This document shows, piece by piece, positions 1,376 to 59,736 of a stretch of 64,000 nucleotides of DNA. Each line of letters begins with the position of its first letter. Positions within the stretch are counted from its first letter, which is position 1. This stretch comes from Cyanobacteria bacterium J06642_2 (GTDB lineage: Bacteria > Cyanobacteriota > Cyanobacteriia > Thermostichales > PCC-7336). The position numbers and the translations under genes were made by a program. The stretch is from the NCBI GenBank assembly GCA_039817845.1, contig JBCBVC010000003.1, positions 7,067 to 71,066 on the forward strand, written 5' to 3'. Under the pieces are notes generated by a model, which saw only the letters and a program-made list of their open reading frames with translations, ran no database searches and had not been told where the DNA came from.

Positions 1376-2848
1376 ATGACTGTCGCTGTTCCGAACCAGG
1401 CTTCCTACACCAGGGCTGACTGGTGTATGGGCTACGAGTCGCTCAAAACCGAGCATTCTTACTGGATTGACGATATTGACGGTCGGCTTCCTCCCGATTT
1501 GGTCGGAACTCTCTTTCGCAACGGACCTGGGCAGTTAGATGTGAACGGTTGTCCTTACAGTCATCCATTCGACGGCGATGGCATGGTTTCGGCAATTACG
1601 TTCACGGGCGATCGCGCGCACTTTCAAAATCGCTATGTCCGCACCCCCGAATTTGAAGCCGAGCAAAAGGCCGGACGTATCCTCTATCGCGGCGTCTTCG
1701 GCACGCCCAAACCCGGAGGCTGGCTAGCCAATGTTTTCGACTTGCGCACCAAAAATTTGGCGAACACTAACGTCGTTTACCAAGGGGACAAACTGTTGGC
1801 GCTGTGGGAAGCTAGCGCCCCCTACAGTCTCTCTCCCGACACCTTAGCGACCCTTGGTGAAGAGACTTTCGACGGCGCGTTGGCTTCCGGCCAATCTTTC
1901 ACTGCCCACCCCCGCCGCGACCCCGAGACGGGAGATTTGATCGCGTTCGGCGTCAAACCGGGACTGTCCTCAACCATTTATCTCTATCGCGTGGACGATC
2001 GCGGTCAACTCGTTGAGCAAACGTCGCATCAGGTGCCAGGGTTCTGCTTTCTGCACGACTTCGTCATCACGCCGAATTACCGCATCTTTTTCCAAAATCC
2101 GGTCTCTTTCAACGCCTTACCCTTCGTGTTCGGTCTCAAATCGGCTGGCAGTTGCGTCGTCCTCGACCCGAAAGCAAAGACGCAAATCCTGTTATTCGAT
2201 CGCCAAGGTAATCTGCACCGCCTTGAAACCGATCCGTGCTTCATCTTTCATCACGTCAATGCCTACGAAGCCGACGCGAACACGCTCGTGGTTGAGTCCA
2301 TTTGCTACGAAGATTACCCCTCACTCGAATCGGGCAGCGATTTTCGAGGCGTGAACTTCGCCAAAGTGCCCCCTGCCTTCGTTTACCGCTTCACGCTCGA
2401 TTTAAAGCGCGATCGCGTTAGCAAAAAACTGATCTTCGAGCGCTCCTGTGAGTTCCCTACCGTTCACCCTGACAAAGTGGGACACGAGCATCGCTACACG
2501 TATTTGGGGTCAATTGCGTCTGGCGATCGCAACGCGCCGTTGCAAGCCATTACCAAAATCGATGGCGTCTCGGGCGAGACCGAATCCCACAGTTTCGCTC
2601 CGCGCGGCTTCATCAGCGAGCCTCTCTTCATTCCTCGTCCCGAGGGTCGGGCGGAAGATGACGGTTGGGTCGTCACGGTCATTTTCGATGCTGCTCACAA
2701 CCGTTCCGACGTGGTCATCCTCGACGCACAAAACATTGCCGACGCACCTGTAGCAACGCTTCATCTCAAGCATCACATTCCCTACGGACTCCACGGCTCG
2801 TTTACAACCGAGGTGTTTGGCGATCGCCAACGGGATTCAGACACGTAA
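1376..2848 (+). CDS. Carotenoid cleavage oxygenase (apocarotenoid-15,15'-oxygenase-like)
   Basis: 490 aa. Four His contexts (FTAHPR, FLHDF, FHHVNAY, HIPYGLHG) are typical of the carotenoid oxygenase / RPE65 family. Confidence 0.85.
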   Translation: MTVAVPNQASYTRADWCMGYESLKTEHSYWIDDIDGRLPPDLVGTLFRNGPGQLDVNGCPYSHPFDGDGMVSAITFTGDRAHFQNRYVRTPEFEAEQKAGRILYRGVFGTPKPGGWLANVFDLRTKNLANTNVVYQGDKLLALWEASAPYSLSPDTLATLGEETFDGALASGQSFTAHPRRDPETGDLIAFGVKPGLSSTIYLYRVDDRGQLVEQTSHQVPGFCFLHDFVITPNYRIFFQNPVSFNALPFVFGLKSAGSCVVLDPKAKTQILLFDRQGNLHRLETDPCFIFHHVNAYEADANTLVVESICYEDYPSLESGSDFRGVNFAKVPPAFVYRFTLDLKRDRVSKKLIFERSCEFPTVHPDKVGHEHRYTYLGSIASGDRNAPLQAITKIDGVSGETESHSFAPRGFISEPLFIPRPEGRAEDDGWVVTVIFDAAHNRSDVVILDAQNIADAPVATLHLKHHIPYGLHGSFTTEVFGDRQRDSDT

Positions 2849-2850
2849 CA

Positions 2851-3438
2851 TCAGCTTCTGTGGCAATTGAGTAACGTCTCAACCAAGTCTTGTGCTGTTC
2901 TCAGTCGCTCAGGATCGTCAGATCGTGCGACCCAAGCAGCCAACTCATTCAGCGAACCATTGACTAAGTGGGCAAATCCCTCCGCATCAATCGTCTTGAG
3001 TTGACCTTTGTTGAAAGCAATCTGAATTGCCTCGTAGAGCAGATCGAATCCATAGCGATCGATTTCAACGAGGTCGTCTGCCGCCAAAACAGCAGGAGCC
3101 TCGACGAATACTAAGCGTCGTACCTCATCCTGTTGAGCGACTTCTAAGAATGCCTTGCAGCCAACGATCAACTGCTGCCAGTTGTCATCTAGCGGTCGGA
3201 CCTGAGCTTGAATGTAGTCCGTAATTTCAGCATAGGCTTCCACAATGACCGCTTTGAAGACCCCAACCTTGTCGTGGAATTGGTGATATAACGCTCCACG
3301 TGTAATCCCTAATTCACTGATAATTTCTTCCGTCCCTGTCGCTGCATATCCTTTCGTGGCGAATAGATGACGCGCCCGATCGAGGATGGAGCGGCGGGTA
3401 CGGCGAGTTTGCTCGGCTTTAGTGAGCTTTACAGACAT
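2851..3438 (-). CDS. TetR family transcriptional regulator
   Basis: 195 aa. N-terminal HTH RSILDRARHLFATKGYAATGTEEIISELGITRGALYHQF. Divergent from the GNAT-SDR pair. Confidence 0.85.
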   Translation of the reverse strand: MSVKLTKAEQTRRTRRSILDRARHLFATKGYAATGTEEIISELGITRGALYHQFHDKVGVFKAVIVEAYAEITDYIQAQVRPLDDNWQQLIVGCKAFLEVAQQDEVRRLVFVEAPAVLAADDLVEIDRYGFDLLYEAIQIAFNKGQLKTIDAEGFAHLVNGSLNELAAWVARSDDPERLRTAQDLVETLLNCHRS

Positions 3439-3468
3439 CGAACATCCTTAAAGATAAACATTCAGACA

Positions 3469-3522
3469 GTATGTATCTTGACAGGCTTTGTCTCGCCGCC
3501 TAGGATACATACAGACTGTATC
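3469..3522 (+). promoter_or_regulatory. Candidate sigma70-type promoter (TTGACA-N17-TAGGAT) with overlapping palindromic TetR-type operator
   Basis: TTGACA at 3478-3483 and TAGGAT at 3501-3506, with a 17-nt spacer. The palindrome GATACA-N7-TGTATC at 3504-3522 overlaps the -10 box. GTATGTATC at 3469-3477 is the inverted partner of GATACATAC at 3504-3512. Confidence 0.35.
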
Positions 3523-3553
3523 TTTGGTTGAGATCTTTCTCGGAGGGAATCTG

Positions 3554-4228
3554 ATGTCAGCCACGTTGAGTACGCGTAAAGCGAAAACTGCAGATATTTC
3601 GTTTCTTGCCAAGATTGAGTACGAAGCCTCCCTGCCACCTCTAAATCACTGTTTCTGGGAAGACGTGTTGCAAGGTACGGGAACTGGTGCTTTGCCGTTT
3701 ATCGAGGCGGAACTCAAAACAGATGCTTCGAATTGGGGTAAGGTATCTGATTTCATCATTTTGGAAGCGGAAGGTAAGCCCGTTGCAGCGGCAGCAGGTT
3801 ATGTCCCGAACGCGGAAGATTACTGTCCGTTGGATTTATCGCGTCTAGAAGCGATCGCGCAGGAATTGCAGTGGTCGCCAGAAACCACAACCCTCTTTCG
3901 CGATCGCTATATGGAACTTTGGGGAAACGATTTGCGACCGCCCTTTCTCACGCCTCAAGCCACCTGGATTATTGAAAATGTTGCCGTTATGCCGGAATCG
4001 CGAGGGCGAGGTTTTGGGAAAGTATTGCTCAGAGCAGTGTTAGAGGAAGGGCGATCGCGGCAGCATTCTCGTGCCGGAATTATGGTTATCAACGGGAATG
4101 ATGTGGCTCAACATACCTATGAATCTATTGGGTTCAAGCCTTATCAAACTTTTCACGCAGATTACTTCTCCGATCTGTTTGATATCGACTTTCCTGGTGT
4201 TACGAAATTGGGTCTGCGTCTAAACTAA
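3554..4228 (+). CDS. GNAT family N-acetyltransferase
   Basis: Track ORF 3488..4228. I prefer the ATG at 3554, which is preceded by GGAGGG. Acetyl-CoA motif VMPESRGRGFGKVLL. Confidence 0.7.
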   Translation: MSATLSTRKAKTADISFLAKIEYEASLPPLNHCFWEDVLQGTGTGALPFIEAELKTDASNWGKVSDFIILEAEGKPVAAAAGYVPNAEDYCPLDLSRLEAIAQELQWSPETTTLFRDRYMELWGNDLRPPFLTPQATWIIENVAVMPESRGRGFGKVLLRAVLEEGRSRQHSRAGIMVINGNDVAQHTYESIGFKPYQTFHADYFSDLFDIDFPGVTKLGLRLN

Positions 4229-4242
4229 ACAGGAGAAAATCC

Positions 4243-4938
4243 ATGTCATTTAAGACTATTCTTGTCGCAGGAGCCAGTCGCGGTATCGGACTGGCAGTAG
4301 CGGAACATTTAGTGTCTAAGTGCGAGCGTTTATTAGCTGTCTCTCGCACGAAAGCTCCCGTTGGCGAATGGATTCGTGCAGATTTATCCGACCTGACAGG
4401 AGTAGAAGCGGTGTTTGAGGCGATTGGAGACGATTGTTTAGATGCCTTGCTTTACATGGGTGGAACGTGGGAAACGCATGCGTTTACTAGCCAATATCGC
4501 TTTGAAGACTGTTCTGATGAAGATATTTCCCGCGTGATTGCCGTTAACTTAGTTGCTCCCATTCGATTAGTTAAAGCGTTATTACCTGCCCTGCGACGAT
4601 CGGACAATCCGAAAATGATTTTCATGGGCTCGCTCTCAGGACGAGATAATTTCCCAGGCAGAGAAGTTGCGAATAGTGCGTCTAAATTTGGATTGCGGGG
4701 TGTGGTACATTCCTTGCGAGAAGAATTGCGATCGCAGCAGATAAGTGCAACAGTGATTAATCCCGGTAATGTGGGAACACCTGAAGTTTTGGCAGACCTC
4801 GCTGCAGATAATTTAATCGGTGGCGAGGCAATTCCTCTAACAGATCTTTTGAGCATTATCGATTGCGTTCTTTCATTATCGAGAGGTACGTGTATTAAAG
4901 AGATTGATGTGCCTGCAATGTTAGGAGCAGGAGCTTAA
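4243..4938 (+). CDS. Short-chain dehydrogenase/reductase family protein (non-canonical active site)
   Basis: 231 aa. The Rossmann motif VAGASRGIGLAV and an AGGAG Shine-Dalgarno before the ATG are present. The expected YxxxK reads NSASK (see findings). Confidence 0.8.
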   Translation: MSFKTILVAGASRGIGLAVAEHLVSKCERLLAVSRTKAPVGEWIRADLSDLTGVEAVFEAIGDDCLDALLYMGGTWETHAFTSQYRFEDCSDEDISRVIAVNLVAPIRLVKALLPALRRSDNPKMIFMGSLSGRDNFPGREVANSASKFGLRGVVHSLREELRSQQISATVINPGNVGTPEVLADLAADNLIGGEAIPLTDLLSIIDCVLSLSRGTCIKEIDVPAMLGAGA

Positions 4939-5262
4939 GCATTTCTGCGTTCATATATTCAAATGAAATAACGGTCGGCTTTAGGCTGCGCAGATATGTA
5001 TGTTCGGGCACTAAAAACTATAGTGATGTCTTCACAATATGTGGTTTCTAGGCTTCTAATCAATGTCTCATTTTTGAGTTGGGTAAACCGCACTCAACCG
5101 CACTTGTGAACCCAAAAAGCAGAGTGCCATACTTTTAATAGAAGACAGGGAGTACAGAGGTCGCTAGCTCAACAAGCCATCATCGAGAAACGTAGAGAGT
5201 TTCGTTTCTTGCTTCTGGCTGGAGCTGTAGTCACTCTTCTCTGCCATTTTGGGAGCATTATC

Positions 5263-5643
5263 ATGACGGATTCTAACCCTAACCCCACTAATTACTTACC
5301 TGGCTTTGAGGGCACGCAGGCTCCGGGGCCTGACAACGAGCTTTGGCAGTATATGCAGTCTCAAGCACCTGAGACATTTCAAAATATTGCTAAATCCTCT
5401 TCCCCTGAGGTCATGGAAATTCTCAGCCACAACATTCGCAGCTTGGTGGGCAACTTACCGCCCGATCAGTTTGGAGTACAAATTGTTACGAACCGCGAGA
5501 ACTTAGCACGCATGTTGTCAGGTGCAATGATGGGTGGCTACTTTCTCAAAACGCTGGAACAGCGTTTAGCCTTAGAGCAAGCGATGGCAGGGAAAACGCC
5601 TCCCAGCTTAAGTGAAGCAGACGACAATACTGAGTCTCGGTGA
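5263..5643 (+). CDS. DUF760-type conserved cyanobacterial/plant protein
   Basis: Track ORF 5209..5643. The internal ATG at 5263 gives MTDSNPN... The stretches SSPEVMEILSHNIRSLVGNLPPDQFGVQI and LSGAMMGGYFLKTLEQRL match my memory of DUF760. Confidence 0.65.
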   Translation: MTDSNPNPTNYLPGFEGTQAPGPDNELWQYMQSQAPETFQNIAKSSSPEVMEILSHNIRSLVGNLPPDQFGVQIVTNRENLARMLSGAMMGGYFLKTLEQRLALEQAMAGKTPPSLSEADDNTESR

Positions 5644-6030
5644 CTTCGTGCTGTGTTGTGAAATCGGTCTAAGCGTATCAGCTGTAGCTGCAGGACGTTT
5701 TGGAAATGGCGTGGTTAATCCATGCTGGAGTCACGAGCAGACATGACTTAACAGACGAGTGAGGAAGAAATTGGCAGGTAGTCCATCCAACATTAGAGCA
5801 TCGCCCCCGGAGAACATATGTCGGTAGCCTCAGTACGGAGACAACACTTGCATCGCCTGCTGAAACTCAGAGCGTCGTAGGAAGAAATTGCAGAAGGTGC
5901 GCCGCAGAAAGCCACAGTCACAGCGGAACTGCAACTACCCTGTTTAGACAACAATCGCGTGCATGGTTTGGCCCAGTTCGTGCCGAAGTATAGTGTGACG
6001 AAATTAGTGACGATCTTGCAGTCGGTCAGC

Positions 6031-6141
6031 TCAACTCGAAGGTTCGCGCTCAATCCATAGAAATAAAGATACGATCGCAACAGCAGGCAGCACGAGACCC
6101 ACAATCATAACCAGATAGGGTGGCAGGAAGGCGGCGGTCAT
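6031..6141 (-). CDS. psaI: Photosystem I subunit VIII (PsaI), 36 aa, below the ORF-track cutoff
   Basis: My translation of the minus strand is MTAAFLPPYLVMIVGLVLPAVAIVSLFLWIEREPSS followed by a stop. FLP...VG...P...LFLxIERE matches cyanobacterial and plastid PsaI as I remember it. It is a single TM helix. Confidence 0.75.
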   Translation of the reverse strand: MTAAFLPPYLVMIVGLVLPAVAIVSLFLWIEREPSS

Positions 6142-6216
6142 TACAGGTCCCCAAACAAAACAGTGCCCAAACTTTATCATGGCGATCGCGTCGCGACGGC
6201 ATCCGAGCAATCGAGC

Positions 6217-6855
6217 TTAACGTTGAGAGTTGAATTGCTCGGGATAGCGATTGATAATCTCCTGACGGCGAAAGCAGGTTAGAGCGTGATCGTTGACTAA
6301 ACCTGTGGCCTGCATGTAGGCATAGCAGATGGTTGAACCCACAAATTTAAAGCCGCGCCGTTTCAGATCTCGGCTGAGAGCGTCAGACTCGGGCGTCGTG
6401 GCTGGGTAGTCAGTGAGAGTCTGCCAGGCATTGACAATTGGGCGACCGCCGCCGAATTGCCAAATGTAATCGGTAAAGCTACCACACTCGGACTGAATGT
6501 CGAGAAAGAGGCGGGCATTGAGTATTGCTGCTGCAATTTTGCGACGATTGCGGACGATACCGGCATCCTGCAGGAGCGAGTTCGCTTTTGCGTCGTCATA
6601 TCGCGCCACTTTCACAGGATCGAAACCGTCAAAAGCCCTACGGTAGGCTGCTCTTTTCCTGAGAATGGTGTACCAACTCAATCCCGCCTGAGCAGATTCG
6701 AGGATGAGGAATTCAAACGCGAGGCGATCGTCGAAGACCGGCACGCCCCACTCGAGATCGTGATAGGCAACATAGTCGGGCTTGCTCAGATCGACCCACG
6801 GACAACGTGAGCGCGCGTCCGATGACACGGAAATATTAGAAATATCAATTGTCAT
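6217..6855 (-). CDS. tag: DNA-3-methyladenine glycosylase I
   Basis: 212 aa. RCPWV..YHDLEWGVPV.DDR.LFEFL.LE..QAGLSW layout and C-terminal HxxxC typical of Tag. Confidence 0.9.
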   Translation of the reverse strand: MTIDISNISVSSDARSRCPWVDLSKPDYVAYHDLEWGVPVFDDRLAFEFLILESAQAGLSWYTILRKRAAYRRAFDGFDPVKVARYDDAKANSLLQDAGIVRNRRKIAAAILNARLFLDIQSECGSFTDYIWQFGGGRPIVNAWQTLTDYPATTPESDALSRDLKRRGFKFVGSTICYAYMQATGLVNDHALTCFRRQEIINRYPEQFNSQR

Positions 6856-6955
6856 GCCAGCTAAACCTCCGGCTAAAGATCTTGCCGCCTATCCAGTCTA
6901 TGGGTCTGCCAAGATAGGTTGAGTTCTTGCAATCAACTGCCAAAGGAATAGCTCT

Positions 6956-8311
6956 ATGGTGTCACCTAGTTCTGCGGCTGCGCCCGAGATGCTCGACGAG
7001 GATCGCGCTCTTTCTCTGGTAGAAGAAGCGATCGCTGCCTCAGATGCCGACGGAGTATTCGTCAGTGTAGAAGCAGGCACGTCGGCACTCAGCCGCTTTT
7101 CGGACAATCAGATGACTCAGAATCTGAGCCGGACGCGCTTTTCGCTATCCATAACCAGTTATGTCGGCGAGCGCAGCGCCACCACTACCACTACTGAACT
7201 GAATGGCGATGCAATCCGCGCTACGGTGCAAAGATCGCGCGAACTAGCTGAGATTGCTCCCATCGATCCCGAATGGGTTCCTCTTTTAGGCCCTCAAACG
7301 TATCCTCAGTACGAGTCGGGCTTTGACGAAGCCACAGCAACGTGTTCGGCACGACAACGAGGCGAGCGGGTACACCGCAGCTGCGAACTCAGTCAACGAG
7401 CTGGAGTGGCGGGTTCGGGGTCACTTAGCACCGACGAGAAGTTGACTGCCATCGGAAACTCAACGGGGCTGAGAGCTAGCGATCGCCGTACCGAGGCTGA
7501 ATTTAGCTTTACTGCTCGTATCGATGACGGTACGGGTTGGCATCAACGCACGGCCTGGAATCTTGGCGCACTGCCGATTGAGGCTCTCGTCCGTGACGCG
7601 ATCGCTCGCGCTCAGGCCTCTTGCCATCCACGTCCTATTGCTCCCGCAACTTACCCCGTCATCATGACGCCCGCCGCTGTGGCCGAATTGGCGAGCTGGA
7701 TAATGTGGAACTTAGACGCACGGGCAGCGGATGAGGGGCGATCGTTCATGTCGCGAGTTTCGACGGCTGAGGCTCCAGCGGGAAATCGGTTGGGGGAACA
7801 ATTGTTCAGTCCTCTGGTACAGATCCGTCGCGATTCCAGCCATCCGCTCTTGCGTCTCTGCCCGTTTTTCCGCAACGGTTTACCCAATAGTGACCTCGAT
7901 ATCGTGCGCGATGGCATTCCAAGCGCACTTTCCTACAGCCGTTACTGGGCGATACAAACGCAAAGCGTACCTACTGGCCCGATGAGTCCATTCGTGATGA
8001 AAGGAAGCGATCGCTCTTTAGATGATTTGATTGCTCAAACCGAACGCGGCATTTTGATCAATCGCGCTTGGTACGTGCGCTACGTCAATCCCAAAACGCT
8101 GGAAGTGACGGGTATGACTCGCGACGGCACGGCTTGGATCGAGGACGGCAAAATCGCCTACCCCATCCAAAACTTGCGCTTCAATCAGAGCCTGCCTAAC
8201 TTATTTCGAGACATTGACGCCCTCGGCACGGTTGAGCGTCACGGCAATTGCGTGGTGCCCAGCGCGCGATCGCGCGGTCTCCGATTCGATAGCGTTACCG
8301 ACAGTATTTGA
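6956..8311 (+). CDS. pmbA: TldD/PmbA family metalloprotease modulator (PmbA/TldE-like)
   Basis: 451 aa. C-terminal GMTRDGTAWIEDGKIAYPIQNLRFN is typical of the family. It lacks the HExxxH seen in the TldD paralog at 40337..41743. Confidence 0.75.
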   Translation: MVSPSSAAAPEMLDEDRALSLVEEAIAASDADGVFVSVEAGTSALSRFSDNQMTQNLSRTRFSLSITSYVGERSATTTTTELNGDAIRATVQRSRELAEIAPIDPEWVPLLGPQTYPQYESGFDEATATCSARQRGERVHRSCELSQRAGVAGSGSLSTDEKLTAIGNSTGLRASDRRTEAEFSFTARIDDGTGWHQRTAWNLGALPIEALVRDAIARAQASCHPRPIAPATYPVIMTPAAVAELASWIMWNLDARAADEGRSFMSRVSTAEAPAGNRLGEQLFSPLVQIRRDSSHPLLRLCPFFRNGLPNSDLDIVRDGIPSALSYSRYWAIQTQSVPTGPMSPFVMKGSDRSLDDLIAQTERGILINRAWYVRYVNPKTLEVTGMTRDGTAWIEDGKIAYPIQNLRFNQSLPNLFRDIDALGTVERHGNCVVPSARSRGLRFDSVTDSI

Positions 8312-8808
8312 TGAGCTGGCAACTTTAGCCGTGTTAACGCTAACCCAGAAGCTTCCTACATATCCGCAAACATGTATGGTGGAGGGGTTCAATGGATACC
8401 TCTGGTTAGAGATTGTTCAAGGACTTGATAGCGAGAGCGTCAACGCGATAAGTTACTACTTCTGCTGACTTGGCCGAGTAAACGTCCCAATACATCTCAC
8501 TAACTTGCTTAGAGAGCCTAGCAAAACATATGTAAACATCGTGATTGCCAATATCGTAGCAGTGGGGGAATCTCCATGCTCGAGGATGGACTGTAAATCG
8601 ACAGTTACAGGTCCCACTGCTTGGGAAGTGATTGTGTTTGTCATTGATATGTCTCAAACTCGATGTCATCATCATCACCTTTAAAACTTGAACTCATGTT
8701 TCATATCTGCTTCATCTTTTCAGTTCATTCAAAGTGAATTGTCACTGATGCGATGTGAACCATGACTGAACTAAAACTGTTTTCACGGTCCAGATTCAGC
8801 CAATTAAT

Positions 8809-9903
8809 ATGCCGGCAACAATACGAGCATCCTCAGAAGGGCTCAGATTAATCGACAAAGCTCGTAGAGTTAAAGGCTGGGCAAAGAGAGATAAAGTTTG
8901 GGCGGATCTTGTTCCAACGTCCCTGTCAACCTTAGGTCGTTTCTGGCTAGGATTTAATGTTCAGCAAGAAACATTTCAAGGTATATGTAACGCTGTTGGC
9001 ATTGAAGATTGGCAGTCAATCGCAGACTTTGATGGCACCAGATATTTCTCAAAAAAAATTTACACTGAAAGACTAAGTTTTGCAATTCAAGGCAGTATAG
9101 AAAAAATTGATAAACATAGGCTTGAATCTATATCGGCCTTACTTCAGCAGATAACGGGAGATACTGAGATCGTGATTTTAGATGTAGAGGAAGGTAGCAT
9201 TAAATTGACTTTAGGTGGCTCTCCAGAATCGCTTAGGAGAATTGAAACTCTGTATAATTCGGGAAAACTAACAGAAGTACTAGGAATCTCTGTTCTAGAT
9301 GTTCATATTCTTGAAAAGAATGAGCTCATTCAATCAATAAAAAACAATTCCGATTCTGTTTTGACTCTCAGTGGGGCCAACCTCAGTGGAGTTGACCTCA
9401 ATGGGACCAACCTCAGTGGGTCCGACCTCATTATGTCCGACCTAAGTGGGTCTGACCTAAGTGGGTCTGACCTAAGTGGGGCCGACCTCCGGTGGGCTGA
9501 CCTCAATGGGGCCAACCTCAGAGAAACCAACCTTTGTGGGGCTGACCTCGGTGGGGCTGACCTCAGTGAGGCTGACCTTAGGGGGGCCAACCTCAGTGAG
9601 GCTGACCTTAGGGGGGGCGACATCAGTAGGGCCAACCTCAGTAGGGCCAACCTCAGTTGGACCATTCTCAGAAATGCCTTCTTTATTGGAGCCAACTTCA
9701 GAAGGGCCAACCTCAGCCAAGCCAATCTCAGTGGGGCCAACCTCAGCGAGGCCAACATCGATGAGGCTGATGTTGTCAGAAATGCAGTTTTTATATCCGT
9801 TGAAGGTGTTTCTGTTCAAGTCAAGAGAAGTTTGCAGAAAAGAGGTGCAATATTTAATGATCCTCCCCCCCCGGAAGAAAGGGGATTGTATCGAGTCAGC
9901 TAA
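8809..9903 (+). CDS. Pentapeptide-repeat protein with N-terminal HTH-like module and a middle linker domain
   Basis: 364 aa. About 27 consecutive A(D/N)LxG pentapeptides span aa 186-322. The N-terminal SSEGLRLIDKARRVKGW...LSTLGRFWLG resembles the HTH head common on cyanobacterial multidomain proteins. Confidence 0.85.
   Translation: MPATIRASSEGLRLIDKARRVKGWAKRDKVWADLVPTSLSTLGRFWLGFNVQQETFQGICNAVGIEDWQSIADFDGTRYFSKKIYTERLSFAIQGSIEKIDKHRLESISALLQQITGDTEIVILDVEEGSIKLTLGGSPESLRRIETLYNSGKLTEVLGISVLDVHILEKNELIQSIKNNSDSVLTLSGANLSGVDLNGTNLSGSDLIMSDLSGSDLSGSDLSGADLRWADLNGANLRETNLCGADLGGADLSEADLRGANLSEADLRGGDISRANLSRANLSWTILRNAFFIGANFRRANLSQANLSGANLSEANIDEADVVRNAVFISVEGVSVQVKRSLQKRGAIFNDPPPPEERGLYRVS
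9364..9775 (+). repeat. 15-nt periodic coding repeat (pentapeptide repeats)
   Basis: Repeated GGGGCCAACCTCAGT / GGGGCTGACCTCAGT-like units. These explain the long spurious ORFs in the other frames and on the other strand. Confidence 0.9.
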
Positions 9904-9935
9904 ATCATCTTGATGTTTATTGCTAACGGAATTTT

Positions 9936-11594
9936 TTAAAGTCCTAACTCTGCTCTAGCTAATTCTGCCGCTGTAAACACGTCAACATCAGAAGCTTCAG
10001 TCCAGTCTGGCTCACCGATATCGCGGTAAAACGTTTCGTCGTATGGGCGTGTTTGTACGACCACAGGCATGGGAACGGCGTGCCCTAAAATCAGCGCTTG
10101 CTGCTTAGTATCTAGCTTGGCTAAAACTGTTTTGAGGTTCTGACCACCCGAGACACCTGTAAACACGGCATCGATATCTTTATCGTCATTCAGCAGCGCC
10201 GTAATGCGCGTGCCCACCTGCGACATCACTTCACTATCGATCCCCGAAGGTCGCTGATCGACCACGAGTAACGTGACGAAATATTTCCGCATTTCGCGGG
10301 CGATCGTGCCGTAAATGGTTTGTTTGACCGTCTGGGGCGCGAGAAACCGATGCGCTTCTTCAATGCAAATTACGAGCTGACGCGGTTTATCTGCCGGGTC
10401 TTTGCTATGTAAAAACTTTTCGGCTTTGTACACATATGCCTGGTGAATGCGACGCGTGATGACGTTACTCGCCAGCATGTAAGACAACAGATTCGCTTGC
10501 GAGCCAAATTCAACAATGACGTGTTTGCCCGCTTCTAGCGATTCTAGAATGTGATTGATGTAGTTATGGGGAACGGCAGGCTTGATGTATTTGAGGTCGT
10601 CCAAGCGGGTTAGCTTACGCTGAAGCGCCATCATTGAAGCCTTATGACCCATGCGCTGCTCGCAGAATTCTTGAATGTCGGAATTGGACATATTGAGCAA
10701 CTGCACGATCCAGTTGCGTCCGAATTCATTGCGCAGAATGATGGCATTTTCCAGGCTGGTTTCCGAGAGATTGAGTTCGTCTCTCAGTAACGCCAAGTCT
10801 TCTACTTCAATTTGGCCGTAGCTGATATACAAATCCAACGCATCGCGGACGCCTCGCCTGCGAGTTGAGTCAGGATCGAGAGTGTAGATTTGCACTTGGC
10901 TAGGAAAAAGTTGCCGCAATCCTTTGACAGTATGAGCGTAGCTGCCTTCTGCAGCTGCCTCCCAGCCGTATTCCGAATGCATGTCAAAAATCAGATTGAC
11001 AGCGGCCTGCTTGCGAATAATTCCGGCCAGGAGCAGTCGCGTTAGAAACGATTTCCCCGTCCCCGACTTCCCAAAAATACCGTTGCTGCGTTCGACAAAG
11101 CGATCGAGATCGATACAGATGGGCACGTCCATATCGAGGGGATTGCCGATCGCAAAATTGCGCTTACCGCGATCGCTTTCTAGCCCAAATACTGCCTGAA
11201 AGTCAGTGCGATCGGCTTCGTAGACTTGCGAGAAATGAGCTGGAATCGTTTTAACAGGAAGTAACTGCGTTTCCCCCGCGTTTCCACTCGTATCCTCAGC
11301 ATCTACCAGCATCAACATAGGGGCGATCGCCACCGTGCCAAATGTTCCTGTCCCAGCCAAAACTTCGCGCAAAAACTGTTCTTCAGGTCGGGGAGGATTC
11401 AACAAAATTTGAGGGCTGGTCGTTTCTAGCGCCACATCCGTTAGCAAACCAAAAAAACGGGTACGCTGACCGCGTACGACTGCAAACTTTCCAACCCGCA
11501 TCTCTTCAACAGAGACACCAGGATTGAGTCGAGCCTCCAGCCCTTGGGTCAGCGATCCTTGGGTGATGGTGGCCAGAGCATGTGAATAAGTCAT
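9936..11594 (-). CDS. HerA-like / DUF87 P-loop ATPase
   Basis: 552 aa. It has a Walker A (GIFGKSGTGKSF), a Walker B-like LVICIEEAHRF, and an N-terminal barrel-like region before the P-loop, as in HerA/FtsK-class ATPases. Confidence 0.7.
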   Translation of the reverse strand: MTYSHALATITQGSLTQGLEARLNPGVSVEEMRVGKFAVVRGQRTRFFGLLTDVALETTSPQILLNPPRPEEQFLREVLAGTGTFGTVAIAPMLMLVDAEDTSGNAGETQLLPVKTIPAHFSQVYEADRTDFQAVFGLESDRGKRNFAIGNPLDMDVPICIDLDRFVERSNGIFGKSGTGKSFLTRLLLAGIIRKQAAVNLIFDMHSEYGWEAAAEGSYAHTVKGLRQLFPSQVQIYTLDPDSTRRRGVRDALDLYISYGQIEVEDLALLRDELNLSETSLENAIILRNEFGRNWIVQLLNMSNSDIQEFCEQRMGHKASMMALQRKLTRLDDLKYIKPAVPHNYINHILESLEAGKHVIVEFGSQANLLSYMLASNVITRRIHQAYVYKAEKFLHSKDPADKPRQLVICIEEAHRFLAPQTVKQTIYGTIAREMRKYFVTLLVVDQRPSGIDSEVMSQVGTRITALLNDDKDIDAVFTGVSGGQNLKTVLAKLDTKQQALILGHAVPMPVVVQTRPYDETFYRDIGEPDWTEASDVDVFTAAELARAELGL

Positions 11595-55818: not shown

Positions 55819-57204
55819 ATGTTTGCGGAGTCGGAAGCATCCTCCATAGAGACCCCCATTGAAACCTTGTCGGAGCGGCGGCGCTTTAAAGCCAGCCTCG
55901 TACTTTTAACCGTATGGCTGCTGGTCGTTGCCCTGCACGTTTTTCCGGTCGCCCGTTGGGCTGTAGTTGGCTTGGCAGCGGTCATGGCCGTTTATGCCGT
56001 GCGGTTTATTGCTATGCTACCGGTCGTGCCGCCTACGACGCTACCTGCATCAAGCGGTACGCCTGCGGCTCCGAACTCGACGACAACGGCCGAGGTTCCC
56101 CTAATTTCGCTGCTAGTTCCAGCCAAAAATGAAGGGGCAGTGCTACCGGCGCTGCTGCAGACTCTCTCCCAATTGGACTATCCTGCCGAGCGCTTTGAAG
56201 TTTGGGTCATTGACGACGCCAGTACTGACCATACAGCTGAATGTGTGGCTGCGTGGCAAACACGCTTTCCTCAGTTGCACGTCTATCGACGCGAGGCCGG
56301 AGCTTCGGGCGGGAAATCGGGAGCTTTGAACGAAGTATTACCGCTGACGCAGGGTGACATTATCGGCGTGTTTGATGCTGATGCGGCTGTACCTGTCGAT
56401 TTATTGCAGCGCTCGCTGCCCCTATTTGAGTCAGAAGCAGTGATGGCGGTGCAGGTACGCAAAGCGATCGCCAATCGCGATGTCAATATTTGGACTTGGG
56501 GCCAATCAATCGAGATGGCTCTGGATAGCTATTTCCAACAGCAACGAGTTGCGGTCGGGGGCTTGAGCGAGCTGCGGGGTAACGGTCAATTGGTCCGACG
56601 CTCGGCTCTGGAGAAAGTTGGAGGCTGGAATGAAGCAACGGTCACCGACGATTTGGATTTAACTCTGCGGTTACACCTGCTCGGTGGCGATATTGCCTTT
56701 TTAGTGACGCCGCCAGTCTTAGAAGAAGGCGTCACCGATGGTGTTAGCCTTTGGCATCAACGCAACCGTTGGGCTGAGGGCGGATATCAACGCTACTTAG
56801 ATTACTGGCCCAGCATTCTCAACAATCACCTGGGTACGGCCAAAACCTTAGATTTAACGCTATTTCTGTTCATTCAATATCTTCTACCCATCGCGATCGT
56901 ACCGGACTTCTTGCTGACGGCATTCCGCACCCATCAACCTGCCCTGTGGCCGCTGAGCTTAGTGTTCGCTGTGATGACCTTGGTAGCTTTATCGATGGGG
57001 TCGCGGCGCGCCCTCGGGCTGCGGGGCACATCTCTGGGGCTAGCCATTGTCGGCGGCTCGATTTACATGCTGCACTGGATTCCAGTTATGGTGGCAACGA
57101 CCGCGCGCATGTGCGTGCGACCCAAGCGGCTCAAGTGGGTGAAAACGCTGCACGAAGGCGGCTATTACGACTTGGCTGACGATGTAGAAGTCGCCGAGGT
57201 GTAG
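55819..57204 (+). CDS. Membrane-bound family 2 glycosyltransferase (monoglucosyldiacylglycerol synthase-like)
   Basis: Track ORF 55747..57204. I prefer the ATG at 55819. The motifs are LVPAKNE, VIDDASTD, VFDADA and QRNRWAEG (QxxRW), with TM helices flanking the catalytic domain. Confidence 0.75.
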   Translation: MFAESEASSIETPIETLSERRRFKASLVLLTVWLLVVALHVFPVARWAVVGLAAVMAVYAVRFIAMLPVVPPTTLPASSGTPAAPNSTTTAEVPLISLLVPAKNEGAVLPALLQTLSQLDYPAERFEVWVIDDASTDHTAECVAAWQTRFPQLHVYRREAGASGGKSGALNEVLPLTQGDIIGVFDADAAVPVDLLQRSLPLFESEAVMAVQVRKAIANRDVNIWTWGQSIEMALDSYFQQQRVAVGGLSELRGNGQLVRRSALEKVGGWNEATVTDDLDLTLRLHLLGGDIAFLVTPPVLEEGVTDGVSLWHQRNRWAEGGYQRYLDYWPSILNNHLGTAKTLDLTLFLFIQYLLPIAIVPDFLLTAFRTHQPALWPLSLVFAVMTLVALSMGSRRALGLRGTSLGLAIVGGSIYMLHWIPVMVATTARMCVRPKRLKWVKTLHEGGYYDLADDVEVAEV

Positions 57205-58481
57205 CCACCAAGGGTACGAGGAGGAATGACACCATCGCTTACGCCAAAATATTTGGCGTAGTGATGCAACGTACGCGTCAGTAATTGTCTGTCTCCCAGC
57301 TGCATGGGACGTTCGGGTGCACGAGGCTCGACGTCAAGCGCTTTGAGAATCTCAGTGGCTACGGCGCGGGCTAATTGCGGTGGGACGGAATTGCCAATCT
57401 GTCGAAACCCGTGCCACTTGGTGAAATGAAAGCGAAAGCAGTCGGGATAGGAATGCAGCCGTGCGGCCTCACGCACGGTAATGCAGCGATCGCGAGCGTA
57501 ATGTATGGGTCGGGGAGACGTAAATGCCCCGCGCGTGCGAGCCGTTCCAGCGCGCAACGTGGTAGAAATGCCCTCCGGATGCAGTTTGAAAAAGCGACTG
57601 ATGGGTTCGCGTTCGCCAGGGAGCGTTTCGGCAAAGCGGCGTCGGGTTTTGGGCGAATGTCGAGTGCGAATGCTGCTGGTCAGCAGGTGAGGCTCAAACG
57701 GGCGGATGTAGCCGTAATGCTGGATAGGCGTTAATCCTCGTAGTGCCGCGCTGTAGGAGCTGGGTTGGCCGAATTCGGCGATCGCTTCGTCCGAGTCCCA
57801 CAGTTCGGGAAAATTTTCTGCATCGGGAATATCGGCGATCGCGTCACGAACGGTCGGGCCCGGAGGAAGTCCTGATGAAGAGATGGTGGCGCGTTTAGGA
57901 TCGGCAGGTCGTGTAAGGGGTAGGGGATAGTGGGGCAAGGGCAAACCGCGACGACATCCAAGCAAAAATAATCGTTGGCGGTTCTGCGGTACGCCATAGT
58001 CGGCGGCATTAAGCACGCGATACTGGCGTTCGACCTCGTACCCACTTTCCTCGAAAACCTCGATCGCGCGCTCTAGATATGTGCGGTGTTCCCCTACGGT
58101 CATCCCCCGTACGTTTTCCATGATGAAATAGTTGGCTTCTAGCTCCCGGACCAGTCGCGCGAACTCGAACAGCAAATGATTGCGTGGATCGTCCAATTCG
58201 CGCTTGCCCATAAATGAAAACCCTTGACAAGGAGGGCCACCGAAGACGACATCAACCGGGCGATCGCCAATGGCCGACCGCTGTCGAATTTCGGCCCCGG
58301 TTACGTCCCTGATGCTGCAACACAATATTGTCCAGTCAGGGAAATTAAAGGCGTGGGCTGCGCAGTGAACAGGATCGAGTTCTACGGCTGCTAGCACGTC
58401 AAACCCGGCCTGCTCGAAGCCGAGGCTCATACCACCAACTCCAGCAAACAAATCCACACCAATGGGGCGCGTTTGCATCAT
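57165..58481 (-). CDS. dcm: DNA (cytosine-5)-methyltransferase
   Basis: 438 aa. It has motif I DLFAGVGGMSLGF, motif IV GGPPCQGFS, motif VI ENV, motif VIII QNRQRLF and motif X GNSVPP. No nuclease-like ORF is adjacent. Confidence 0.9.
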   Translation of the reverse strand: MMQTRPIGVDLFAGVGGMSLGFEQAGFDVLAAVELDPVHCAAHAFNFPDWTILCCSIRDVTGAEIRQRSAIGDRPVDVVFGGPPCQGFSFMGKRELDDPRNHLLFEFARLVRELEANYFIMENVRGMTVGEHRTYLERAIEVFEESGYEVERQYRVLNAADYGVPQNRQRLFLLGCRRGLPLPHYPLPLTRPADPKRATISSSGLPPGPTVRDAIADIPDAENFPELWDSDEAIAEFGQPSSYSAALRGLTPIQHYGYIRPFEPHLLTSSIRTRHSPKTRRRFAETLPGEREPISRFFKLHPEGISTTLRAGTARTRGAFTSPRPIHYARDRCITVREAARLHSYPDCFRFHFTKWHGFRQIGNSVPPQLARAVATEILKALDVEPRAPERPMQLGDRQLLTRTLHHYAKYFGVSDGVIPPRTLGGYTSATSTSSAKS

Positions 58482-58708
58482 CCAGATGTTCCAGAGCGTG
58501 CTTGCAGGCTTCTTTCCACCGAAATTTCCACCGAAATAAGGTGTCGCTGAACGTCTCTCGATTGCCAGCGGTGAATTACAGAAACGCGCCGACAGTCCCG
58601 CACGGCTAAGCCGAACGCTGTCGCTCCCTTTCGAACCGAGCGCAAAAGGAGCCCAACCTTTGCAAACCCTTCCAGCAGCATCGCGCCGCTAGTCTCGGAA
58701 TCAATCAT
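58478..58708 (-). CDS. Possible small coupled ORF (76 aa) between the coiled-coil gene and dcm
   Basis: The ORF spans exactly from the upstream stop to the dcm start, with ATGA overlaps at both ends (58705-58708 and 58478-58481). No recognisable motif. Confidence 0.35.
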   Translation of the reverse strand: MIDSETSGAMLLEGFAKVGLLLRSVRKGATAFGLAVRDCRRVSVIHRWQSRDVQRHLISVEISVERSLQARSGTSG

Positions 58709-59493
58709 CCGCGAGATACGAGCGGGCGGCGCTGCACGAACGCCGGCAAATCCACCTGTGGTCGGTTAGCGGTTTGCGCGGCAGTTGTGGGTGGCTGAGG
58801 TGAAGCTGGCGATTTGATCCTGGCGGCAACGTGTTCCGCTGAAGCCGCTACCATTTCCTGAATTCGGCGATCGCCAATATGCCGACCCGTCTCATTCTCG
58901 AACTCCCCCAAAGGGGATAAAGCAATCTCAGGATCTATACCTGCCTCCGTAACTGCTGGTGCGAAAATCTCACCCGCCGGGATGAGGGGATTACCATCAG
59001 GAATTGCGATCTCGCCTGTCGGGATGCCGACCCGCGCAGCCGTGCGGTATTCCTGACATTCCGCTAGACACTTGTCCAGCGTTGCTTTGAGCTGAATGTT
59101 TTGACGTTCGACGGCGTAGAGGCGTTCTTTCAGCTCTTGCCTGGCTGCTTCCAATTCCTGTTTGTTCTCCTCCAATTCAGCGAGCTCGCGTTCCTGAGTT
59201 TGCGAGTAGGAACGAGCCTCGGCACATTCGCGCTCTAGTTCCACCACGCGCTGCTGTAAACCAGCATGCTGGCGTTTAAGGACCAGATGATGGGCTTCTG
59301 CAATTTCCTGTTTGCGTTTAGCTTCCTGCAGCTGCTCGGCATTTGGTCGCTGCGTTAGGTCCCGCTCGAACTGCTGCTGCACTTCTTCGAACTCCGACCA
59401 CGACGGCCGCCGTTCTAACTCAGCCATCAGTTGTTGCTCGCGAGCTTGGGCTGCAGCAATTTGCTGTTTTAGGGTCTCAATGTCCGGTGCCAT
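58705..59493 (-). CDS. Coiled-coil protein, first gene of the dcm operon
   Basis: 262 aa. About 150 aa of heptad-rich sequence (QQIAAAQAREQQLMAELE...ELEENKQELEAARQELKERL) are followed by a Pro/Gly/Ala-rich tail. Confidence 0.6.
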   Translation of the reverse strand: MAPDIETLKQQIAAAQAREQQLMAELERRPSWSEFEEVQQQFERDLTQRPNAEQLQEAKRKQEIAEAHHLVLKRQHAGLQQRVVELERECAEARSYSQTQERELAELEENKQELEAARQELKERLYAVERQNIQLKATLDKCLAECQEYRTAARVGIPTGEIAIPDGNPLIPAGEIFAPAVTEAGIDPEIALSPLGEFENETGRHIGDRRIQEMVAASAEHVAARIKSPASPQPPTTAAQTANRPQVDLPAFVQRRPLVSRG

Positions 59494-59736
59494 CGCTTTC
59501 GAACTACCTCACAAATGCACACTTCAGAACGCGGTGCTTTCCCAGCTCTTGCCGGCACAATACCCGCACGAGCCTTGTGGAGCTAAATCCGCATTTCGAA
59601 CGAATTCAACGTTCTCTGACCCTATATATAGCGAATTTTTTTCGAATAGGGGCGTACTCAACTCTACATTTAGATTTATCTCTTCGATTGGAACTTTGAA
59701 GCGAAATGCTTCCATGTCACCACCGGTGGCAAATTT

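Follow-up and report, generated by a model that had tools for sequence, protein, structure and literature searches.

Why does a solitary cytosine methylase, in a cyanobacterium rich in the HIP1 repeat, lie directly behind a gene for a coiled-coil protein, and do the two genes form a functional unit with the small open reading frame (ORF) that separates them? This question is raised by a locus of Cyanobacteria bacterium J06642_2, a member of the PCC 7336 family in the order Thermostichales. We analysed a stretch of 64,000 nucleotides from contig JBCBVC010000003.1 (assembly GCA_039817845.1, positions 7,067 to 71,066 of the forward strand), which as a whole is referred to here as the window. The genome assembly comprises 4.48 Mb in 404 contigs and is 92.7% complete. 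The locus consists of three ORFs:

57165-58481, minus strand: methylase ORF, encoding a C5-cytosine (m5C) DNA methyltransferase of 438 amino acids (aa)
58478-58708, minus strand: s76, an ORF of 76 aa between cc and the methylase
58705-59493, minus strand: cc, the coiled-coil gene, 262 aa

The sequence ATGA is found at both junctions, cc/s76 and s76/methylase. An earlier note on this DNA had described these three minus-strand ORFs and the two ATGA overlaps, both of which we confirmed by reading the window sequence, and had interpreted them as a translationally coupled operon. Our analysis favours a different joint explanation, to which we assign a probability of roughly 0.65: the methylase would be an orphan CGATCG/HIP1 enzyme, co-transcribed with cc as a non-obligate neighbour, s76 would be spurious, and the cc protein would end in an FtsZ-like tail.

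The 438-aa protein matched PF00145 over positions 4-324 of 324 (E = 2e-67) and TIGR00675 (E = 6e-56). The alignment contains the motifs DLFAGVGG, PPCQGFS, ENV, QNRQR, REAARLHSYPD and GNSVPP, and motifs I, IV (PCQ), VI (ENV), VIII (QxRxR), IX and X are invariant in it and follow the canonical order. The profile matches and the alignment thus bear out the full set of canonical m5C motifs that had been claimed previously. Two features of the methylase matter for its function and specificity:

58227..58229, minus strand: codon of the catalytic Cys85 in PPCQGFS (motif IV); P84, C85 and Q86 are invariant in the alignment
57489..57956, minus strand: target-recognition domain, residues 176-331, located by alignment between motifs VIII and IX

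Thousands of cyanobacterial homologues share about 57-63% identity with the methylase over the full length. Our comparisons used the best 80 genome loci, among which Synechocystis 6803 and Anabaena 7120 are not represented. The closest relatives, L002 and L001, are 78% and 71% identical over the whole methylase and 64-70% identical in the target-recognition domain, within which the block TLRAGT...GAFTSPRPIH is invariant. With members in other families of cyanobacteria, this domain is collinear (155-156 of 156 positions, 48-56% identity); with the two further m5C methylases of the genome it shares just 17-20% identity. One of the collinear members, L084 from Scytonema hofmanni UTEX 2349 (NZ_KK073768.1 4710622-4711884; 57% identity overall, 49% in the target-recognition domain), coincides in position with a CGATCG methylase entry of Elhai 2015 (4710605-4710622|4710622-4711902; PMC4390886, Table S4). 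DmtD, the rCCGGy enzyme of the same strain, is listed there at a different position. According to the same survey, the CGATCG m5C enzymes make up one coherent group, orthologous to the proven Anabaena DmtC and the Synechocystis enzyme (PMC4390886). The Synechocystis gene slr0214 was reported to encode M.Ssp6803I, which generates m5CGATCG and whose mutant has a weak phenotype (Hagemann et al. 2018, PMC6105098). The link to M.Ssp6803I and DmtC was judged via the list of Elhai 2015, slr0214, alr2276 and M.XorII being absent from our alignments and tree.

Family membership, the conservation of the target-recognition domain, the coordinate match with the list of Elhai and the co-occurrence with HIP1 inside the order (see below) together identify the methylase, on sequence grounds, as the orthologue of M.Ssp6803I (slr0214) and DmtC (alr2276), with the first C of CGATCG as its predicted target. 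The earlier note had raised this equivalence as a possibility and had made it depend on the target-recognition domain; the idea gained support, the domain being collinear with that of the CGATCG-assigned L084 and not with those of the genome's other m5C methylases. The window enzyme resembles M.Ssp6803I and DmtC/M.AvaVIII in Pfam family, length, motif order and the conserved target-recognition domain, and its gene is likewise solitary in a genome full of HIP1 repeats, the core of which is the target. Elsewhere the family occupies lpxB, znuA or other contexts, whereas the window enzyme is encoded behind a coiled-coil gene. Many Nostocales (L010, L042, L044, L048 and others) carry the DmtC-family methylase directly after lpxB (384-392 aa, PF02684), which in turn frequently follows a 272-aa ORF; this Nostocales context fits the position of alr2276 in Anabaena PCC 7120, immediately behind the lpx cluster.

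The window holds 106 copies of the HIP1 octamer GCGATCGC, with its core CGATCG, where 2.7 are expected, so the saturation of the window with HIP1 noted before is real. The 4.48-Mb assembly contains 6915 copies, against 128 for a reversed-pattern control. Across the 30 genomes of the window's order, for which the same control gave 10-181 copies, the methylase and HIP1 richness co-occur perfectly (7/7 genomes with the enzyme versus 0/23 without). The seven methylase-bearing genomes, all of the window's family, hold 1644-10948 HIP1 copies, while the sister family, Thermostichus and its relatives, contributes 23 genomes that have no orthologous methylase and hold 29-394. This co-occurrence corresponds to a single phylogenetic split, not to many independent events, and it is therefore supportive rather than independent proof.

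The contrast is not uniform in its details. Two sister-family genomes without an orthologous methylase, G407 and G410, contain 394 and 367 HIP1 copies against 16 and 35 for the control. In the window's own family, the methylase of genome G401 (L099 4438-5355; G401:C29 at about 27.4-28.4 kb) has an in-frame internal deletion of approximately residues 149-315, which removes motif VIII and the target-recognition domain, and the gene is preceded by a Rieske oxygenase gene instead of cc. HIP1 is less dense in this genome than anywhere else in the family, with 1644 copies in 2.7 Mb, and it may represent decay of the methylase accompanied by erosion of HIP1.

We searched the whole 92.7%-complete assembly for nucleases and found neither an Eco29kI-type nuclease (PF09517) nor Vsr (PF03852); the Eco29kI type was not found in 5/6 other genomes of the PCC 7336 family either. 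The genes flanking the methylase are those for a GT2 glycosyltransferase on one side and for the coiled-coil and NlpC/P60 proteins on the other, in agreement with the earlier note, which had seen no nuclease or Vsr beside the methylase and had left room for a cognate nuclease elsewhere in the genome. The methylase is an orphan, without a cognate nuclease. We consider it very improbable that the enzyme has a specificity other than CGATCG or belongs, as its modification component, to a split restriction-modification system. An assembly of this completeness could lack a nuclease gene, and an Eco29kI-type nuclease does accompany some members of the family, such as that of Stigonema ocellatum (L007), where the nuclease gene (2789-3433) lies directly upstream of the DmtC-family methylase. 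Moreover, the window enzyme comes from an early-branching lineage, and the survey of Elhai ties such lineages, outside its groups A and B, mostly to N4-methylcytosine (m4C) enzymes for CGATCG (PMC4390886). On the other hand, the methylase family, the CGATCG-assigned member included, shares a collinear target-recognition domain of about 50% identity, and with one exception no Eco29kI-type nuclease was found in the genomes of the PCC 7336 family. A nuclease cutting CGATCG would also meet about 7000 HIP1 sites, yet the presence of the enzyme tracks the abundance of HIP1.

The exception is found in Synechococcus PCC 7336, where at about 2.014 Mb of the chromosome an Eco29kI-type (GIY-YIG) nuclease gene (L101 4969-5427, plus strand), its frame interrupted by an internal TGA, is convergent with an N6_N4-type methylase gene (5429-6778, minus strand). 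The gene pairings in PCC 7336 and Stigonema ocellatum suggest that the Eco29kI-type subfamily includes CGATCG cutters. The PCC 7336 entry of Elhai (SYN7336-RS9770) could not be mapped to the cc-linked methylase and was not used as support; it is probably the N6_N4-type methylase beside this Eco29kI-like nuclease. The two other m5C methylases of the window's genome reside in contexts unlike the window locus. The second m5C methylase, of 351 aa (L004 1501-2556; contig C9 at about 40.7-42.8 kb), is located next to smpB and is followed by an overlapping 357-aa ORF (L004 2538-3611) without a Pfam match, and the two are probably a conventional restriction-modification pair.

The next question is whether the ORF that precedes the methylase is part of the same unit. 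Two features lie between cc and the methylase:

58482..58704, minus strand: cc-methylase spacer of 223 nucleotides, carrying s76, which is probably not a functional gene
58513..58537, no strand assigned: perfect 12-nucleotide tandem duplication of 2.1 copies (Tandem Repeats Finder, 100% match)

The ORF s76 is restricted to the window's species. Neither of the closest relatives, L001 and L002, has it, and their spacers of 181 and 56 nucleotides are unrelated to, and unalignable with, that of the window. A tblastn search to E = 10 against all fetched loci and the rest of the genome returned no match, and neither did Pfam or NCBIfam above threshold. The codon score of s76 is poor, at 0.024 per codon: of 76-codon segments cut from real genes, 97.8% score higher (s76 ranks in the lowest 2.3% of true coding segments), and spurious frames of comparable length surpass it in 15.6% of cases. 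An open frame across the 223-nucleotide spacer is unremarkable, because the methylase frame, too, extends without a stop for 69 codons ahead of its start, making two of the three sense frames open there. The first ATGA is composed of a conserved Gly codon GGA and the TGA stop of cc, and it is kept in L002 without any ORF after it. As for the spacer itself, the fold z-score of +0.48 gave no signal of RNA structure, an Rfam search gave no match at E <= 1, and searches for a terminator on the minus strand and for a sigma-70 consensus were negative; the spacer has a single copy in the genome, which rules out a repeated or mobile element.

These sequence features indicate that s76 is probably no real gene, but a frame that happens to be open within a rapidly changing spacer. 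It could instead be a real, very young small protein, ATGA-coupled after cc and feeding ribosomes into the methylase start, which we regard as unlikely. The exact ATGA overlap at each end and the preservation of the s76 frame by the 12-nucleotide duplication are what such a protein would lead one to expect, and gene callers predict s76 too. Two other assemblies of the species also retain the complete ORF and encode the same product, and in a 98.8%-identical strain both substitutions in the spacer are synonymous in the s76 frame (~p = 0.06 by chance). Two synonymous changes are, however, too few for significance, and the first ATG merely results from the conserved GGA-TGA terminus of cc. Together with the absence of any counterpart in the two nearest relatives, the lack of a family match or paralogue, the second open sense frame and the poor codon usage, this argues against a young gene. 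With s76 not counted as a third gene, the double ATGA is no evidence of translational coupling. In relatives, moreover, 56-315 nucleotides separate the cc stop from the methylase start, and translational coupling is thus not a property of the cc-methylase pair. The three-gene, translationally coupled operon proposed in the earlier note was therefore not upheld.

What remains is the adjacency of cc and the methylase. In the PCC 7336 family, every genome with an intact methylase has cc immediately upstream on the same strand. The nine loci concerned, from four sublineages, are the window, G402/L001, L002, PCC 7336 (L087), L088/89, L090, G404, G405 and G406, and the gene upstream of the methylase is 77% (L002) and 67% (L001) identical to cc. 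The outer neighbours of the pair vary, with at least five different genes on each side: NlpC/P60, adenylate kinase, CobW, M24 peptidase and aminotransferase genes upstream, and GT2, Kelch, nucleotidyltransferase, permease and other genes downstream. As a background, 5/29 other neighbouring gene pairs of those loci are adjacent in the window's genome. In the methylase tree, whose topology is broadly that of the species tree, the cc-linked enzymes group together in a single clade (SH-aLRT 95), from which we conclude that the arrangement arose once and was then retained. Independent acquisitions of the methylase beside cc in separate lineages were rejected on the same ground, the linked methylases being one clade. 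Outside this family each gene occurs without the other. All 23 sister-family genomes have cc without an orthologous methylase, and at 80 other cyanobacterial loci the methylase is found without cc, after lpxB, znuA, heme oxygenase or other genes. The two are therefore not obligate partners. Thus, of the coupling to a coiled-coil gene described earlier, the conserved upstream neighbour stood, within the PCC 7336 family only, and the translational coupling did not; likewise, cc is syntenic with the methylase in these relatives and s76 is absent.

Transcription of the pair would start upstream of cc, in the following region:

59494..59736, no strand assigned: upstream intergenic region, putative promoter region of the cc (and methylase) transcript, of lower G+C

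The survival of the adjacency through rearrangement of the flanks, the lack of a terminator-like site in the window's cc-methylase spacer and the coding-like G+C content of this spacer (0.56, against 0.45 upstream of cc) suggest that cc and the methylase are co-transcribed as a two-gene unit. The G+C content is 0.45-0.47 in 59494..59736 and 0.54-0.62 in genes. A GAGGTAG sequence stands 12 nucleotides ahead of the cc ATG. A search for a consensus sigma-70 promoter in 59494..59736 gave no match, and the cc promoter is accordingly a putative one. A 63-aa ORF on the minus strand (59524-59715) inside this lower-G+C region is a predicted gene in one public assembly (L133); it is without a family match and has a weak codon score. 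At the other end of the locus, the 3' ends of the methylase and of the convergent GT2 glycosyltransferase gene share 40 nucleotides (57165-57204), an overlap not present in L002, where the methylase is shorter. A family search of the window proteins identified the outer neighbours as this glycosyltransferase and a peptidase with NlpC/P60 and SH3 domains.

The coiled-coil protein itself belongs to a narrowly distributed family. Against Pfam and NCBIfam, cc gave only sub-threshold coiled-coil noise and no known domain. A word-index search retrieved 4 proteins, and a profile search of 1.84 billion representative proteins just 21 at E <= 0.001, of which the better-scoring ones share the core and the tail and the weakest cover short stretches only. 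The better-scoring relatives are longer (314-941 aa), with a common core EAxRRQExAEAHHxVxKxQ...ELExEC and a C-terminal tail; the window cc is a short member without the conserved N-terminal half of the long ones. Neither this truncated membership of an order-wide family nor the FtsZ-like tail had been noticed in the earlier note. The family is present in 30/30 genomes of the window's order, and in a 400-genome sample of the phylum true matches were confined to this order, so a wider spread was rejected. AlphaFold2 predicted helices at residues 2-28 and 32-47, a single 104-residue helix at 52-155 (mostly pLDDT >90), disorder at 156-205, a short conserved helix at 206-223 and then a Pro-rich disordered linker and the tail. 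The cc protein is probably a dimeric rod, with a disordered linker and an FtsZ-like C-terminal peptide behind it. Like the cyanobacterial coiled-coil-rich proteins (CCRPs; HmpF/Slr1301/CypS, ZicK/ZacK), cc is a long Gln/Glu/Arg-rich coiled coil without enzymatic domains, and both CCRP-type proteins and cc relatives are often annotated as 'chromosome segregation ATPase'. The named CCRP sequences were not part of a direct comparison, and no sequence relation between them and cc was detectable; unlike CCRPs, the cc family is confined to one order and has its own EAxRRQExAEAHH core and FtsZ-like tail.

That tail is the following feature:

58723..58755, minus strand: C-terminal peptide VDLPAFVQRRP, cc residues 247-257, resembling the conserved C-terminal peptide of FtsZ

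The cc end DLPAFVQRRP can be likened to the tail DIPDFLRKRRPR of the FtsZ of the same genome, which ends in LDIPDFLRKRRPR. The motif [DE][ILV]PxF[LVI][RQK][RK][RK], which was written after both tails had been seen and to fit both, matches only cc and FtsZ among 6796 ORFs of >=80 aa, in both cases within six residues of the C terminus. All members of the cc family end in [VI][DE]LPxFV[QR]RR, with L249, P250 and F252 invariant, and the FtsZ proteins of the order all end in LDIP[DE]FLR[KR]RR. The FtsZ C-terminal peptide is a docking site for membrane tethers and regulators (review PMC7766704). This peptide (CCTP/CTC, D-I-P-x-F-L-R-K/R), which docks FtsA, ZipA, SepF and others, and the cc tail share the layout of a disordered Pro-rich linker ahead of nearly matching residues, [VI][DE]LPxFV[QR]RR(P) in cc and LDIP[DE]FLR[KR]RR(P) in FtsZ. 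They differ in that the FtsZ peptide is carried by a tubulin-like GTPase and the cc peptide by a coiled-coil rod, with Leu for Ile and Val for Leu. Cyanobacteria are without FtsA and ZipA and use ZipN and SepF (PMC7766704). Its FtsZ-like motif makes it probable that cc attaches to a binding partner of the FtsZ tail, SepF or ZipN, either being recruited in this way or competing with FtsZ. A reading of the tail as a beta-clamp-binding motif was rejected, since there is no leading Gln and the FtsZ peptide fits far better. A second coiled-coil protein of the window's genome, 403 aa long and encoded on contig C34 (13294-14505, plus strand) directly upstream of murC-murB, ends in GIDLPKFVGRHHGST, and the tail of its homologues from Thermostichus and related genomes reads IDLPxFLR, which is FtsZ-tail-like too.

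The tail raises the possibility that cc and the methylase form a functional module, in which the FtsZ-tailed cc at the divisome or nucleoid would recruit the methylase or time its expression and so couple HIP1 methylation to the cell cycle. The unbroken junction in all nine loci and four sublineages despite reshuffled outer flanks, the mimicry of the FtsZ docking peptide, and the internal deletion in the methylase of the sole separated pair, that of G401, are all compatible with such a module. We nevertheless judge it improbable. The 23 genomes of the order that keep cc without an orthologous methylase and the 80 other cyanobacterial loci, where the methylase has no coiled-coil gene beside it, speak against it; the methylases of the family have no extra domain or insert as a docking site; and the adjacency has a single origin, with G401 being one case. 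The model for such a module is CcrM of Caulobacter, an orphan methylase with cell-cycle-tied expression; CcrM, however, is an N6-adenine enzyme of a different family, and the likeness extends to this reading only.

Under the explanation we prefer, an orphan HIP1 methylase with a co-transcribed but non-obligate neighbour, the methylase would act alone. It would flip out the target cytosine, form a covalent intermediate through Cys85 and transfer the methyl group from S-adenosylmethionine onto the first cytosine of CGATCG, at about 7000 HIP1 sites in the genome. The methylase would have been placed directly downstream of the order's core coiled-coil gene in an ancestor of the PCC 7336 family and then kept there, most likely by read-through from the cc promoter in a two-gene transcript. 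Several points count against this explanation. The CGATCG target of the window enzyme is predicted from orthology, and the HIP1 co-occurrence that accompanies it is the single split described above. The spacers of 56-315 nucleotides could hold a separate promoter for the methylase. The intactness of s76 in other assemblies, its synonymous changes and its prediction by gene callers are likewise at odds with a spurious frame.

The methylase is an ordinary new member of the known DmtC/M.Ssp6803I family, which it extends into the early-branching Synechococcus PCC 7336 lineage. The locus also provides a clean contrast within one order, the Thermostichus sister family being without both the enzyme and HIP1 richness, which bears on what maintains HIP1, and the ATGA-linked 76-aa 'gene' is removed as a false lead. 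Two coiled-coil families of the order, seemingly unrelated to each other, terminate in a near-FtsZ peptide, which suggests, as far as such tails can tell, that several proteins of these cyanobacteria share or compete for the sites on which the FtsZ tail docks. PCC 7336, a cultured strain, would allow this docking to be tested. There is a small chance that cc and the methylase are a selected two-gene unit through which the division machinery times or positions the methylation of about 7000 HIP1 sites. If so, division-timed HIP1 methylation would offer the first functional clue to why HIP1 and its methylase are retained in cyanobacteria.

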